Shown: positions 24,234-29,468, counted from the stretch's first letter. The stretch: 64,000 nt of DNA from Actinomycetota bacterium (GCA_030017835.1 JASEGU010000004.1:6445-70444); one strand, 5' to 3'. Numbers and translations: made by a program. Notes: generated from the sequence alone by a model not told the origin.

Positions 24234-24368
24234 TCAGGCTGAGATCTTGGCCCTTCCTTTTCGGCGCCTTGCGGCCAGGATTGCTCGGCCAGCCCTCGTG
24301 CTCATGCGCTTTCTAAAGCCGTGGGTTTTTTTTCTTTTTCTTACATTGGGCTGAAATGTTCTCTTCAA
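24234..24368 (-). CDS. rpmH: 50S ribosomal protein L34 (TTG start)
   Basis: Hand translation of the minus strand gives (M)[43 protein letters not shown]. The ORF track missed it because it starts on TTG and is only 44 aa. Confidence 0.85.
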
Positions 24369-24526
24369 GTATATCTTCCTTCTCTCGTTTAGCTTGCCCG
24401 TTAAAACTGAGTAATTATAGCGTGGGCCATTTGGGGTGTCAAGAAAAATGAGGCATTCTTGACATTAAAAAACCTGTTAGTCGGCGCCCTTCTTCTCTCC
24501 CGCCCTAGTCACCAGCGGCAAAATTT

Positions 24527-24535
24527 TGATATAAT
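24527..24535 (+). promoter_or_regulatory. extended -10 promoter element (TGaTATAAT) directed toward the GHKL-wHTH ORF and dnaA
   Basis: TGATATAAT at 24527-24535, with a weak -35 (TAGTCA) 18 nt upstream. Confidence 0.35.
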
Positions 24536-24634
24536 TTATTGGAAACTTTGGCGCTTTTTGAAGCGGCTTGAAAAGGATGAAAAGAGACTCTCGCCCCGAA
24601 AGGGCTTTTCTTCTCTGTTTTCTAAGCCTTTTCA

Positions 24635-24660
24635 TTTCTTTCCACATCTGTGGAAAGAAA
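24635..24660. promoter_or_regulatory. perfect 12-bp inverted repeat with 2-bp spacer containing two inverted DnaA-box-like 9-mers (TTTCCACA / TGTGGAAA)
   Basis: TTTCTTTCCACA-tc-TGTGGAAAGAAA. It sits upstream of dnaA in the rpmH-dnaA intergenic region. It could be an oriC element or the operator of the adjacent wHTH protein. Confidence 0.5.
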
Positions 24661-24763
24661 TGTGTAAAAGTGCGCCATTAGCCCTGTTGGCATGCTTCAT
24701 GAAAAAATTAATCTTTGGCTGAAGCTTAAGACGTCCTTGGTCCGGTGAGCTCGGCCGAACTCT

Positions 24764-25648
24764 TTGCGGGCCCCATCTTGGGCGGATACTTTTGTGGAGG
24801 AAGCTGTGAACAAGTTTTTGGAGAGGGTCCTGTCCGAAAAAGAAGATGCTAAAAAAGAGAGCCTCGCTCGGGAGGCCGCCCCTTCTTGCGCTGAGGAGAA
24901 GGGGGCCTCTTCCTTCAGGGGGTTTGCGCGAATAGCAATATATGACTCTCTCTCTTCGCCGCCACAGATAATTGAGCTCTCCTGCCAGGACCGCCAAGAG
25001 TTCATCGATTCTCTGGGAGCCAAGATATATCAGCTCTCTCACGAAGGGGGCGGGAACGCACCCTTTGCCGCCATCAAGGAGCTGGTCGAAAACCTCATAC
25101 ACGCCTCCTTTAAGGAGGTCGTCGTCACGATCCTAAACAAGGGGAACACCATAAGGATAGCCGACCAGGGGCCGGGAATCGCAAATAAAGACAAGGCCCT
25201 TGAGCCCGGTTTCTCGACTGCCACCAGCGAGATGAAGCACATCATAAAGGGGGTCGGCTCGGGCCTTCCAATCGTAAAAGAAATAGTGGGCCTATCAGGT
25301 GGGGTCATGAAGATAGAGGACAATCTTGTATCTGGGTCGGTAATAACCATGGAGTTTAAAAAGATCCCCGAGCTGGGCGGGGTAGAATTGCCCGCCAAAA
25401 AGAAGCCTTCTCCCCTTACGATGACGCTTTCCAATCGGCAAAAAAAAGTGTTATTCTTAGTTGCTGAGGTCGGCCCAATCGGTCCCTCAGAGATGGCCTC
25501 TGAGCTAAGCATGAGCCTTAGCACTGCCTATAGAGACTTAAGGTCTCTAGAGGACTTGGGACTACTTAGGGCTGACGACAGGGGCCGAAGGGTCTTGTCC
25601 CAAGAGGGCGTCGACTTTATGGAAAACTTTTTCGACCAAACAGGGTGA
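24764..25648 (+). CDS. GHKL (histidine-kinase-like) ATPase fused to a C-terminal winged-HTH, immediately upstream of dnaA
   Basis: N-box ELVENLIHASF, G1 ADQGPGI, G2 GVGSGLPIVKEIV, and a C-terminal MarR/ArsR-like wHTH (VLFLVAEVGPIGPSEMASELSMSLSTAYRDLRSLEDLGLL). The stop is 4 nt before the dnaA ATG. The start is uncertain; GTG/ATG alternatives lie downstream of 24764. Confidence 0.55.
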   Translation: MRAPSWADTFVEEAVNKFLERVLSEKEDAKKESLAREAAPSCAEEKGASSFRGFARIAIYDSLSSPPQIIELSCQDRQEFIDSLGAKIYQLSHEGGGNAPFAAIKELVENLIHASFKEVVVTILNKGNTIRIADQGPGIANKDKALEPGFSTATSEMKHIIKGVGSGLPIVKEIVGLSGGVMKIEDNLVSGSVITMEFKKIPELGGVELPAKKKPSPLTMTLSNRQKKVLFLVAEVGPIGPSEMASELSMSLSTAYRDLRSLEDLGLLRADDRGRRVLSQEGVDFMENFFDQTG

Positions 25649-25652
25649 TTTC

Positions 25653-27002
25653 TTGCAAGCAGACATCGCGGAGGCCTGGAAAGAGGCCGTAAAACAATTA
25701 AAGGCTGGGATGAGTGCTCCCATATCGAAGGCTTGGTTCGATAACACCTCGGCGGTTGATATGTCAAATGGTGTCGTCTTTATATCGGCTCCCAATAATT
25801 TCATCAAAGAGTGGCTCGAGACAAGACACGTCGACTCAATAAAAGAGACCCTGTCGGCTATCTTAAACGAGGATGTGCTCGTAAGCTTCATTTCTAAAGA
25901 GTTAGAAGGGGTCGCCACGTCGCCCAGGACCAAGATTCAATCAAAACCGCCAGAGACCGAGGCGAGGGGTGGGGCCGGCCTCTTAAATTCAAAATATACC
26001 TTCGAAGCTTTCGTGATCGGAAGCAGCAACCGGTTCGCCCACGCCGCCGCATTGGCCGTGGCGGAGCTTCCTTTTAAGGCTTACAACCCGCTGTTTATCT
26101 ATGGCGGCGTGGGCCTTGGAAAGACTCACCTGCTGCAGGCTGTCGGCAACTATGTCTCCCAGCATAACCGCGAACTTAAAATTAGGTATGTTTCGACGGA
26201 GAAATTTACCAACGACTTCATCAGCTCAATTGGAGATAGGGGCAAAATCTCTGGTTTTCAAAATAAATATCGCAAAGTTGATGTGTTGATGATAGACGAC
26301 ATCCAGTTTATAGCCGGCAAGGAGGCGACCCAAGAGGAGTTCTTTCACACATTTAATAATCTATATGAAGCGAATAAGCAGATGGTTATCACTAGCGACC
26401 GCCCACCAAAGGATATCTCAACCCTAGAAGACCGCCTTCGTTCGAGGTTTGAGTGCGGCCTCATCACCGATGTCCAGCCACCTGATCTGGAGACAAAGAT
26501 AGCCATTTTAAAGAGAAAGCTTAGCGATAACGACGTCGTCTCTTTCGAGGTTTTAGAGTTCATTGCTTCCAGGGTCCACTCGAATATTAGGGAGCTTGAG
26601 GGGGCGCTGACTAGGGTTCTTGCCTTTTCCTCCTTCACAAAAACCCCGATAGATATTAAGCTCGCCGAGGAGGTTTTAAGGAATATATTCTCAAACAAAG
26701 AGAGCCGACCGATATCGATTCAGGCCATACAGAATGAGGTCTGCCGCTTTTTTGGGATTTCAAAAACCGAGCTCGTCGGAAGCCGGCGGAGTCAGCCGAT
26801 TGTTTATCCTAGACAGATTGCTATGTACCTATCGAGAGAATTAACTGATATGTCTCTTCCAAAGATCGGCGAGGAGTTTGGTGGAAGAGATCACACAACG
26901 GTGATGCACGCCAATTTAAAGATAGAAAGGCTAATAAGCGAAAGGCGGGAGATATATAACCAGATTCAGGAGTTAATTAATAAGATAAAACAGAGATCTT
27001 AA
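25653..27002 (+). CDS. dnaA: chromosomal replication initiator DnaA
   Basis: AAA+ Walker A GGVGLGKTHLL, plus domain IV with the basic-loop/HTH C-terminus. Confidence 0.95.
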   Translation: MQADIAEAWKEAVKQLKAGMSAPISKAWFDNTSAVDMSNGVVFISAPNNFIKEWLETRHVDSIKETLSAILNEDVLVSFISKELEGVATSPRTKIQSKPPETEARGGAGLLNSKYTFEAFVIGSSNRFAHAAALAVAELPFKAYNPLFIYGGVGLGKTHLLQAVGNYVSQHNRELKIRYVSTEKFTNDFISSIGDRGKISGFQNKYRKVDVLMIDDIQFIAGKEATQEEFFHTFNNLYEANKQMVITSDRPPKDISTLEDRLRSRFECGLITDVQPPDLETKIAILKRKLSDNDVVSFEVLEFIASRVHSNIRELEGALTRVLAFSSFTKTPIDIKLAEEVLRNIFSNKESRPISIQAIQNEVCRFFGISKTELVGSRRSQPIVYPRQIAMYLSRELTDMSLPKIGEEFGGRDHTTVMHANLKIERLISERREIYNQIQELINKIKQRS

Positions 27003-27215
27003 TAACTCTAAGCCTGTTGATTATTTGTGTATCAATTATTAACAATTTTGGGATTTAAAAATTTCACAACTTTTATTAATAGTTCTAAATAATTTATTAG
27101 ATGTTTGTGAACAATTAAGAGACGGGGCAAGCTCTGTAATTAACAATTCAACAAGCTCTAATATTATTACTATTTTTATTTATTAATATATCAATCAATA
27201 CTAAGAGGTGTTTAA
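27003..27215. promoter_or_regulatory. oriC-type AT-rich dnaA-dnaN intergenic region (DNA-unwinding element plus degenerate DnaA boxes)
   Basis: About 25% GC over 213 bp, against about 58% for the surrounding window. Degenerate boxes TGTGTATCA (27026-34) and TGTGAACAA (27106-14). There are runs of TTATT/ATTAA. Confidence 0.55.
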
Positions 27216-28319
27216 ATGTTTATCACTTGTGAGCAGAAAGAGTTATTGGAAGAGATTCAAGTAGTTCAAAAGGCCGCATCCATCCGGAGCACCCTCCCCA
27301 TCTTAAGCGGCATACTTTTTAGCGCTTCGGCCGGCAGGCTACATCTTACCACCACCAACTTGGAATTATCTATACATTCCAGCCTGCCGGCCGAAGTCAA
27401 AGAAGAGGGATCTTTAGTCGTTCAGGCTCGCCTAATTGGAGAGATCATTAAAAACCTTTCTGATTTAAAAATAGAAATGTTTTTAGATTCCTCCACAAAC
27501 CAACTAAAATTAACCAATTCCAAGTCGGTCTTCAATATAAAAATCCTTTCGCCAGAGGACTTTCCAAAGTTTCCCACGGCCGAGTTGGACAATCAGTTCA
27601 CCATCAAGTCGGAAGACCTCTCTAACGCTATAAGACAGGCCATAAAAGCCGCCTCTATTGATGAGACTCGGCCCATCTTGACCGGCGTCCTTATTGTAGT
27701 AAATAAAAATAGGTTAAAGATGGTTGCCACCGACAGCTATCGTTTAGCCATAAAAGAGATCCCAATAATCAACAAAGAAGACGTCAAGATAAAGGCCATC
27801 ATTCCCTCAAGAACGCTCGGGGAGCTTCTTAAGATTGTCTCTGATGGACGGAGCGAAGTAGTGGTGGGAGAGATGGGAAATCAACTCGCCTTTAAGATTA
27901 AAAATACCACCCTGATAACTCGGCTAATAGAGGGGCAGTATCCAAACTATCAACAGATCCTCCCAGAAAAGTATGAGATGAATTTTGTGGTGGATCGAGA
28001 AAATCTTCTTGGCGCCGTAAAGAGGATATCCTTATTTACCCAAAGCAACTCTTTAATAAAAATGGCGGCAAGAGATGGCTCTCTTGAGCTCAGCGCCTCT
28101 GCTGCTGAACTTGGTGAGGCCAAAGAGGCAGTAGATTATAGGGGGACGGGAGACGGATTGACAGTGGCCTTTAATAGTCAATATCTGATCGACGGCCTTA
28201 GTAGTATTCAGGGAGAGGAGGTATCCTTTGATATGATAGACAACATGAAACCGACCTCAATCACAGGAGACAAGAAGGATGACTTCCTCCACCTCTTAAT
28301 GCCGGTTAGAACCGGATGA
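27216..28319 (+). CDS. dnaN: DNA polymerase III beta sliding clamp
   Basis: 367 aa, three-domain clamp, canonical position after dnaA. Confidence 0.9.
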   Translation: MFITCEQKELLEEIQVVQKAASIRSTLPILSGILFSASAGRLHLTTTNLELSIHSSLPAEVKEEGSLVVQARLIGEIIKNLSDLKIEMFLDSSTNQLKLTNSKSVFNIKILSPEDFPKFPTAELDNQFTIKSEDLSNAIRQAIKAASIDETRPILTGVLIVVNKNRLKMVATDSYRLAIKEIPIINKEDVKIKAIIPSRTLGELLKIVSDGRSEVVVGEMGNQLAFKIKNTTLITRLIEGQYPNYQQILPEKYEMNFVVDRENLLGAVKRISLFTQSNSLIKMAARDGSLELSASAAELGEAKEAVDYRGTGDGLTVAFNSQYLIDGLSSIQGEEVSFDMIDNMKPTSITGDKKDDFLHLLMPVRTG

Positions 28320-28355: not shown

Positions 28356-29468
28356 TTGCATCTTTTTAGAGCAGAGCTCCTCAGCTTTAGAGGTCACAAA
28401 GAGGCTTCATTCGAGCCCATCCCTGGCATAAATGTGATAATCGGTGATAATGGCTGCGGCAAAAGCAACCCGCTAGAGGGAATCTTCGTCCTTATGAGAG
28501 GGAGGTCCTTTGGGACGAGCCAAGACGATGCTTTGATTCAACTCGGAGAGAGGGCGTCGGTAATTAGGGGGAGGTTTAAGGGAGAGAAGAGAGACTCTAA
28601 AATCGAAATGGGCATAAATGCTGACGCCGGAAAAGAGATTAGACTGAACGGCTTAAGGCTGGAGAAATTAAAAGATCTTAAGAGTTCTTTTGGAATAGTC
28701 ACCCTCTCTCCTGAGGATCTTAAGCTCGTCAAAGGTGGCCCCGAAGAGAAGAGGGCGCTCATGGATGAGGCTGGGGGGCCCTTGGCCCAAAATATGACCA
28801 TGCGAGGATGAGCCCTTTTAAGGTTTTAAAGCAACGAAACAACCTCTTAAAACAGATCAAATTTGGGAGAGCAGGCCCGCTCAAGCCCTGAGATATGGAA
28901 CGAGAGACCGATCATAACCGGAAAGAGGTTGATGGATGAGAGAAGAGAGACGGTTCAGCCTTTGAGCGAAGTCTGTCAAGATGTCTTCAATGAGATTTAC
29001 GGCCAGAGGCGCAGCCTGAGCCTAATGTGTTCGAACGAAATCTTTAAAAAAGACTCTCCGTCGAGGAGCCTCTCAAAGACCTCTTGGAAAAAGGGGGGGG
29101 CCGATGAGATTGAAAGGGGAACAAGCCTCATCGGCCCCCATAGAGACGACCCAACGATCCTTCTTGGGGGAAAAGAGGGGCCCAGGCCATATGTCTCCCA
29201 GGGCGAACAGAGGGCCATCAGCTTGGCCCTGAGGCTGGCCCACTATGAGCTCTTGTGTAGAGATGAACACGGGATGAACCTGTTTCTAATGGACGACGCC
29301 ATGTCGGAGATGGACGAGAAGAGAAGAGACAACCTCTTAAATTTCATCTCCGGGCTCAAACAGACCACAATCACCAGCACAAATCTCTACTACTTCAAGG
29401 ACGAGCATCTTAAAATGACGAACCTGATTGAAATGGGAGAAGGCGAGAGGAAGAGCAAGGCTTGTTGA
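28356..29468 (+). pseudogene. recF: recF disrupted by two compensating frameshifts (N-terminus and C-terminus in frame 0, middle ~100 nt in another frame)
   Basis: N-terminal Walker A GDNGCGKSN in frame 0. The middle segment …LGPKYDHARMSPFKVLKQRNNLLKQ… is in another frame. The C-terminal signature LFLMDDAMSEMD is back in frame 0. Frame 0 has three in-frame stops over 28809-28850. Shift sites are a G6 run at 28773-28778 and about 28855-28870. Confidence 0.7.

Follow-up and report, generated by a model that had tools for sequence, protein, structure and literature searches.

A GHKL-ATPase/winged-helix gene family linked to dnaA encodes a candidate regulator of chromosome replication

Analysis of a 64,000-nucleotide (nt) stretch of DNA from an Actinomycetota bacterium (GCA_030017835.1, JASEGU010000004.1:6445-70444; hereafter "the window") reveals a genuine gene between rpmH and dnaA, the predicted product of which joins a GHKL-type ATP-binding domain to a DNA-binding winged helix-turn-helix (wHTH) domain. 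The gene belongs to a discrete and unnamed protein family with a near-obligate linkage to dnaA, and its place directly ahead of dnaA in hundreds of uncultured bacteria of Gram-positive type makes the protein a strong candidate for a new regulator of chromosome replication. We favor, with a probability of about one half, the reading that the protein is an ATP-switched DNA-binding regulator of replication initiation and/or of transcription of the dnaA operon. The original prediction, an uncharacterised regulator of replication initiation, thus stands as the most reasonable reading of an open reading frame (ORF) that is real and linked to dnaA; the function itself we infer. The component domains are known; the family and its obligate dnaA linkage appear to be undescribed, and a search of the literature for the protein, for a gene between rpmH and dnaA, or for GHKL proteins near dnaA found nothing.

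The ORF lies, as originally proposed, in the rpmH-dnaA interval and is co-directional with dnaA. Substitutions relative to a homologue with 85% protein identity are distributed over codon positions 1, 2, and 3 as 31, 15, and 70, and the identical protein is on deposit as "MAG: ATP-binding protein [Actinomycetota bacterium]" (MAG, metagenome-assembled genome). Three candidate starts are available: TTG 24764, which opens the mechanical ORF (24764-25648; 294 amino acids, aa); GTG 24794, the NCBI call (284 aa); and GTG 24806 (280 aa). To map the start, the upstream DNA was aligned with that of the two closest relatives (L081 and L082), one sharing 85% and the other 65% protein identity. The window and both relatives have the block GGAGGAAGCTGTGAA unchanged, and GGAGGAAGCT-GTG-AAC is the same in all three sequences, with the DNA immediately 5′ diverging. 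With the Shine-Dalgarno-GTG block kept intact in both relatives and the DNA ahead of it changing, the true start is most likely GTG 24806; the length of 294 aa first assigned therefore describes a real ORF with a start that is probably too early. The stop codon (25646-25648) is separated from dnaA by 4 nt, exactly as predicted, with the correction that dnaA starts at TTG 25653 rather than at an ATG. A scan of the window found no terminator-like site on the plus strand between the ORF and dnaA.

The protein comprises two recognizable domains. Pfam HATPase_c (PF02518) matches aa 102-199 with a score of 43.4 bits (gathering cutoff 26.4), and Pfam HTH_IclR matches aa 236-271 with a score of 25.5 bits (cutoff 22; both in 294-aa numbering). 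The MarR, HTH_20, ArsR, and TrmB profiles match the same C-terminal stretch, all below their cutoffs. In particular, MarR scores 21.7 against a cutoff of 24.6 and MarR_2 scores 16.5 against a cutoff of 27, with alignments covering the wHTH core only, and on these grounds membership of the MarR family proper was rejected. The wHTH of the original prediction is thus present, with HTH_IclR as the only one of these profiles above its cutoff. NCBIfam contains no specific model for the protein and returned only generic sub-cutoff matches (NifL, MutL, and assorted histidine kinases, HKs).

Alignments of 25 and 52 homologues reveal invariant motifs in each element of the predicted nucleotide-binding site: an N box, E-x-x-E-N-x-x-H-A; a G1 box, D-Q-G-P-G-I; a lid, P-G-F-S-T-A; and a G2 box, K-G-V-G-S-G-L. 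Specifically, residues E92, E95, N96, H99, D120, G122, G124, G149, G151, and G153 (280-aa numbering) are invariant in the 52 sequences, and the sole invariant histidine falls within the N box. The linker between the GHKL domain and the wHTH is variable, and the recognition helix of the wHTH, SLSTAYRDL, is near-invariant across phyla, which implies a conserved DNA target. An AlphaFold (AF2) model has a mean pLDDT of 84, with both domains at ~90 or above and two disordered linkers. The model is laid out as a β-hairpin and helix, a Bergerat-fold domain showing the α/β sandwich that defines the GHKL superfamily, a flexible linker, and the wHTH. The Bergerat-type domain with N, G1, and G2 boxes that had been recognized at the outset is borne out as a predicted ATP-binding domain, and its type is that of HKs and SpoIIAB, not that of GyrB and MutL.

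Comparison with known proteins places the ATP-binding domain closest to HK CA domains (KinB, PDB 3d36; HK853; CpxA), which are its best matches by sequence (E = 2.6e-8) and by Foldseek and have a similar lid, of EP-x-F-T-T type. A profile search of PDB returned just HK CA domains (KinB, E = 2.6e-8), together with MutL, which matches the N-box stretch alone. Unlike HKs, the protein has no DHp/HisKA domain, phospho-acceptor histidine, sensor region, or transmembrane region, and there is no response regulator nearby. In particular, Pfam finds no HisKA family match, the model contains merely a β-hairpin and one helix before the N-box helix, and the ORF is flanked by rpmH and dnaA, with no response regulator at the locus. 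Assignment as a two-component sensor HK was rejected for the lack of DHp/HisKA, phospho-acceptor histidine, and cognate response regulator. Assignment as a GyrB/MutL-type ATPase, suggested by an N box that recalls the ELVEN motif of MutL, was rejected because the lid, the G2 box, and the fold fit the HK/SpoIIAB branch and the protein contains no transducer domain. The SpoIIAB/RsbW anti-sigma serine kinases (PDB 1l0o) are similar at the superfamily level only: those are stand-alone GHKL proteins of ~140-160 aa with adjacent STAS antagonist and sigma genes, whereas the protein described here adds a C-terminal wHTH and an N-terminal β-hairpin and helix, at a locus with neither a STAS partner nor a sigma factor. 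Proteins of the DIP2311/COG2865 type (PDB 3lmm) have ~550 aa (target chain 492-556 residues) compared with 280 aa, so that ~270 residues are without counterpart here; the identity to 3lmm, the function of which is itself unknown, is only 11%, and we know of no linkage of such proteins to dnaA. Membership of this group was rejected, as Pfam finds no large N-terminal domain in the protein or in the longer family members scanned. Lacking both a DHp/HisKA and a transducer domain, and with no response regulator beside its gene, the protein is best described, on its predicted domains, as an orphan ATP-binding domain of HK/SpoIIAB type joined to one that binds DNA.

Two database searches returned 561 and 2149 homologues; all named matches in both are MAG or metagenome sequences, with no cultured carrier among them, and their names are only "ATP-binding protein," "histidine kinase," "ArsR/MarR regulator," or "hypothetical." An exhaustive profile search against representatives of clusters at 50% identity returned 391 members at a threshold of E ≤ 1e-30 and 599 at one of E ≤ 1e-10; past these, the matches fall off to generic HATPase_c proteins, indicating a discrete family of ~400-600 such clusters. 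The gene is present in at least 525 GTDB species genomes and is not a one-off insertion. The architecture is constant over the family; the N-terminal extensions of long homologues contain no Pfam domains and probably reflect over-called starts.

Synteny was assessed in the best 80 GTDB loci of the at least 525 and in five additional look-ups. dnaA is immediately downstream in 79 of the 80 loci (the contig of the 80th ends first), and rpmH is divergently upstream in 73. Three loci (L017, L044, and L077) lack the rpmH cluster and still keep the ORF, dnaA, and dnaN together as a unit, and the five additional look-ups, which include a Bacillota/Clostridia-labelled branch, show the same order. No member was found in a context other than dnaA in the loci examined. 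The median distance from the ORF stop to the dnaA start is 20 nt, and 66 of 74 loci have a gap of ≤80 nt. The records are labelled Actinomycetota (Aquicultoria, Humimicrobiia, Coriobacteriia, and Thermoleophilia), Sysuimicrobiota, "Armatimonadota," and Bacillota; the Actinomycetota members are basal, and the dnaA linkage is near-obligate. Every related locus examined thus has an orthologous ORF in this position. The original prediction had named as evidence against itself a lack of profile domains, or absence or non-synteny in relatives together with a poor coding signal; the opposite was found on each count.

The leader upstream of the gene contains a perfect inverted repeat of 14+2+14 nt (24633-24662), which had been noticed as a perfect 26-bp palindrome and is longer than stated; the 64 kb contain a single copy of TCCACANNTGTGGA, where 0.03 would be expected. 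The core of the palindrome consists of two head-to-head 9-mers that resemble DnaA boxes, 2 nt apart, and a third box completes a triad with the layout -> <- <- (Table 1). Each box in the window has 2 mismatches to TTATCCACA, in agreement with the DnaA-box-like character first ascribed to the arms. The equivalent sequence, T[TACG]TCCACA-NN-TGTGGA[AT]A with a spacer of always 2 nt, is present in ~70 of the 80 related loci at a similar distance 5′ of the gene; the orthologous box positions carry TTATCCACA, TTTTCCACA, or TTGTCCACA, and box 3 is frequently a perfect TTATCCACA. In the spacers upstream of the ORF, DnaA-box k-mers show the strongest enrichment of all words by a wide margin. The outer positions of the arms vary independently and asymmetrically in relatives, and base-pairing is therefore not a conserved feature of the palindrome. 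The triad is flipped (-> -> <-) and lies ~320 nt upstream of the ORF match in loci labelled Sysuimicrobiota or "Armatimonadota" (L028, L033, L034, L038, L042, L051, L054-L057, L061, L067, and L068), so that the module appears to be orientation-independent.

The triad is not restricted to loci that carry the gene. A scan of metagenome contigs for TCCACANNTGTGGAAANNNNTGTGGAYAA yielded 120 loci (L083-L202), of which 38 contain the GHKL-wHTH gene and 48 have the triad 20-100 nt upstream of the dnaA start with the gene absent (e.g., L087, L100, L119, and L141). These gene-less loci include low-GC human-gut contigs and high-GC contigs, with the module TTATCCACA-NN-TGTGGAAAA-NNN-TGTGGATAA. The rest include recurrent contexts away from dnaA, namely the rhomboid-crgA spacer, the interval from rhomboid to a THUMP-like/PG_1098 gene, and a position beside a gltD-like (Fer4_20 + Pyr_redox_2) gene near DUF3169 (L103, L134, L176, L194, L096; L104, L123, L130, L142, L152; L155, L160, L167, L169, L170); these triads could possibly be DnaA-regulated promoters or DARS/datA-like sites. 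Because the triad is present without the gene in 48 loci and also at non-dnaA loci, it is best read as a general putative DnaA operator/oriC module of dnaA leaders that is independent of the GHKL-wHTH gene, and it is not evidence for a wHTH operator. The gene, for its part, sits between the triad and dnaA. The triad also bears a likeness to the core of the E. coli DARS, which contains DnaA boxes I-III, with I and II opposed across a 5-bp spacer, and promotes ADP release from DnaA (PMC6868365). Both elements comprise three DnaA boxes, two opposed and the third in tandem, and they differ in that the opposed boxes of the triad are 2 bp apart and the triad is located in the dnaA leader; we regard this likeness as a resemblance only, useful as a lead.

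Sites of Spo0A, CtrA, and MtrA overlap DnaA boxes in other origins, and the original prediction had raised the palindrome as a possible operator shared between DnaA and the wHTH protein. A wHTH dimer would then bind the box 1/box 2 palindrome, competing or cooperating with DnaA. The dyad, with half-site centers ~9-10 bp apart, suits a wHTH dimer, the recognition helix and the palindrome are both near-invariant across phyla, and no alternative conserved candidate operator was found. However, the triad and its 2-nt spacing recur in the 48 gene-less dnaA loci and at the non-dnaA loci, variation at the outer positions of the arms is asymmetric, and DnaA alone accounts for the element; the palindrome consequently loses its value as evidence for a shared operator. 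The clade of L046, L076, and L080 points the same way. In these loci nearly all boxes of the triad, together with the box of the dnaA-dnaN spacer, have shifted to TCAACA (in L080, box 1 is still TTTTCCACA), and domain IV of DnaA carries DHS and HARQ changes, whereas the wHTH helix barely differs (SLSTSYREL vs SLSTAYRDL). Covariation between half-site and recognition helix is thus uninformative for the wHTH and appears to favor DnaA, and we consider a shared operator rather doubtful, if worth keeping in view.

A separate wHTH operator was sought by discriminative k-mer comparison of ORF-bearing with ORF-less loci, covering upstream regions and dnaA-dnaN spacers. This candidate was rejected: beyond DnaA boxes and trios, the comparison gave nothing but promoter-like motifs of particular lineages, of which CCTTGAAAAC is an example. 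In many Coriobacteriia-type loci with the ORF (L012-L079) that motif precedes the triad at a fixed distance of ~230 nt, and the window has it at 24563-24574; it is found in 0 of 28 ORF-less spacers, in a comparison confounded by phylogeny, and may be a lineage-specific -35-like element.

In the reading we favor, the ORF would be the first cistron of a conserved operon comprising the GHKL-wHTH gene and dnaA and probably continuing into dnaN. The operon would be transcribed away from rpmH through a leader containing the three-box DnaA operator, and DnaA would most likely autoregulate both genes jointly. An extended -10 promoter upstream of the ORF, noted in the original prediction, is present (Table 1); it is shared by the 85% relative and missing from the 65% relative. 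By binding or hydrolyzing ATP, the GHKL domain would set the dimerization or conformation of the protein, this state would govern DNA binding by two wHTH domains at or near the origin or dnaA control region, and the outcome would be a modulation of DnaA access or activity, i.e., of replication initiation and/or transcription of the dnaA operon. Pairwise distances of the ORF product correlate with those of DnaA (r = 0.85) and DnaN (r = 0.86), and partial correlations controlling for other genes of the locus are 0.33 for DnaA and 0.38 for DnaN, compared with -0.07 for YidC and -0.10 for Jag; the correlation fits vertical co-inheritance and hints weakly at co-evolution.

Several points weigh against this reading. 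The sequence pairs behind the mirror-tree signal are not independent, which confounds it, and gene adjacency by itself is no proof of a role in replication. NCBIfam, PDB, and the literature yielded no characterised homologue, and the k-mer comparison turned up no candidate wHTH operator confined to ORF-bearing loci. Finally, many bacteria have the triad without the gene, which shows that the gene is not needed for the element.

Genes of anti-sigma factors directly precede those of their sigma factors, and the gene order and the 4-nt gap at the present locus resemble that arrangement. By analogy, the protein could be an anti-initiator or partner-switching kinase: a SpoIIAB-like GHKL protein, made from the same mRNA as DnaA and in fixed proportion to it, that would bind, and possibly phosphorylate on serine, DnaA or another initiation protein in an ATP-dependent manner, with the wHTH tethering it to the origin or dnaA leader. 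The ExxxN N-box, the P-G-F-S-T lid motif, the missing DHp domain, and the partial co-variation with DnaA and DnaN are all consistent with this proposal. Against it, no STAS antagonist or sigma gene is nearby in the window, the interaction with DnaA is hypothetical, and the strongly conserved wHTH suggests a DNA-centered function; moreover, no precedent is known to us for regulation of DnaA by a GHKL kinase. We judge this proposal unlikely.

Less probable again is a one-component transcription factor of the ordinary kind, which would have no part in replication and would ride the dnaA operon for growth-coupled expression. A nucleotide-binding, sensor-like domain joined to a wHTH is typical of such regulators, and no origin-specific operator was found; but the near-absolute linkage to dnaA over several phylum labels, held even where the rpmH cluster is rearranged, is unlikely to arise by chance, and no member occurs in another context among the loci examined. 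A last alternative, in which the ORF would be an artefact or a newly arrived mobile element and the palindrome an RNA hairpin or attenuator of the leader, as a leader RNA fold of z = -3.1 with stability mainly from the palindrome might suggest, is effectively refuted by the 561 and 2149 homologues with invariant catalytic motifs, the synteny, the third-codon-position bias relative to the 85% relative, distances that track DnaA and DnaN in keeping with vertical inheritance, and arms that vary independently around a 2-nt "loop" that is too short, with no T-tract after the palindrome.

The surroundings of the gene are those of a classical origin region. trmE, jag, yidC, yidD, rnpA, and rpmH are on the minus strand and the ORF, dnaA, dnaN, and recF on the plus strand (ORF list of the window), and the cumulative GC skew has its minimum at 24-26 kb of the window. 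The positions of the individual features are given in Table 1.

Table 1. Features of the rpmH-dnaN region, in window coordinates.
Feature	Position	Strand	Basis or remark
rpmH (ribosomal protein L34)	24234-24368	-	Pfam Ribosomal_L34, 74.6 bits; divergent neighbor upstream of the ORF
rpmH promoter, perfect TTGACA-17-TATAAT	24414-24442	-	promoter scan 12/12; sigma-70 consensus; conserved in L081 and L082
Candidate ORF-dnaA operon promoter, TAGTCA-18-TG-n-TATAAT (extended -10)	24506-24535	+	promoter scan; function inferred only
DnaA box 1, CTTTCCACA, left palindrome arm	24638-24646	+	equivalent in relatives T[TACG]TCCACA
DnaA box 2, CTTTCCACA, right palindrome arm	24649-24657	-	2 nt from box 1
DnaA box 3, TTTTACACA	24661-24669	-	same orientation as box 2, 3 nt beyond it (tandem); also conserved in L081 and L082
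Shine-Dalgarno GGAGG	24796-24800	+	5 nt ahead of GTG 24806
GHKL-wHTH gene, 280 aa	24806-25648	+	ORF list, Pfam, homologue alignments, DNA of relatives
Conserved N-terminal β-hairpin and helix and HK/SpoIIAB-like GHKL domain (N, G1, G2 boxes)	24926-25360	+	HATPase_c, invariant residues, AF2 pLDDT ~90, PDB sequence and fold matches
C-terminal wHTH, recognition helix SLSTAYRDL nearly invariant	25421-25633	+	
dnaA, TTG start	25653-27002	+	Pfam DnaA_N, Bac_DnaA, Bac_DnaA_C
dnaA-dnaN spacer	27003-27215	.	degenerate DnaA boxes, trio-like ATTATTACTATT run, AT-rich stretch
dnaN	27216-28319	+	ORF list

The degenerate boxes of the dnaA-dnaN spacer are at 27015, 27026, 27036, and 27106, and the corresponding spacers of relatives contain canonical boxes followed by CTACTA-type trios, which suggests that the spacer is likely the unwinding side of a Bacillus-like bipartite oriC, downstream of dnaA. 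An inverted copy of TTGACA is present at 24459-24464 on the plus strand, near the rpmH promoter. Rfam found nothing relevant in the leader. A match to AsdA, an antisense RNA of dnaA mRNA, at 26100-26179 on the minus strand (31 bits against a gathering score of 52) lies inside the dnaA coding region and probably reflects conserved dnaA sequence rather than a small RNA. Further downstream, recF (28356-29468) is interrupted: its N-terminal ORF has an in-frame stop at 28809, the canonical RecF "...KVLKQRNNLLKQ" segment is legible only in a different frame at ~28800-28890, and the original frame is back at 28863. Such a pair of close frameshifts points to an error in the MAG assembly or to a pseudogene.

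Most of the present understanding of how DnaA is controlled comes from E. coli, Bacillus, and Caulobacter, and the regulators known so far are restricted to particular lineages. The role proposed here, accessory control of initiation, is that of YabA, SirA, Soj, Hda, DiaA, HobA, Spo0A, CtrA, and MtrA. The protein would be nucleotide-switched like Soj and Hda and DNA-binding like Spo0A, CtrA, and MtrA, and Pfam and NCBIfam scans detect no homology to any of these regulators; to our knowledge, none of them is a GHKL protein or the promoter-proximal cistron of a dnaA operon. The present family is, by comparison, a single unnamed family locked to dnaA across several deep Bacillati lineages with few or no cultured, studied members. 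An action on initiation, if confirmed, would be the first for a GHKL-type ATPase and would offer a direct handle on the coupling of replication to energy state in the bacteria that carry it. Should the anti-initiator proposal be the correct one, deep-branching Actinomycetota, Sysuimicrobiota, and some Bacillota would possess an energy-sensing brake or licence on initiation that has no counterpart in model organisms. The triad, with its -> <- <- layout and its 2-nt and 3-nt gaps, is widespread upstream of dnaA in low-GC and high-GC bacteria and is useful for the annotation of oriC and dnaA promoters.

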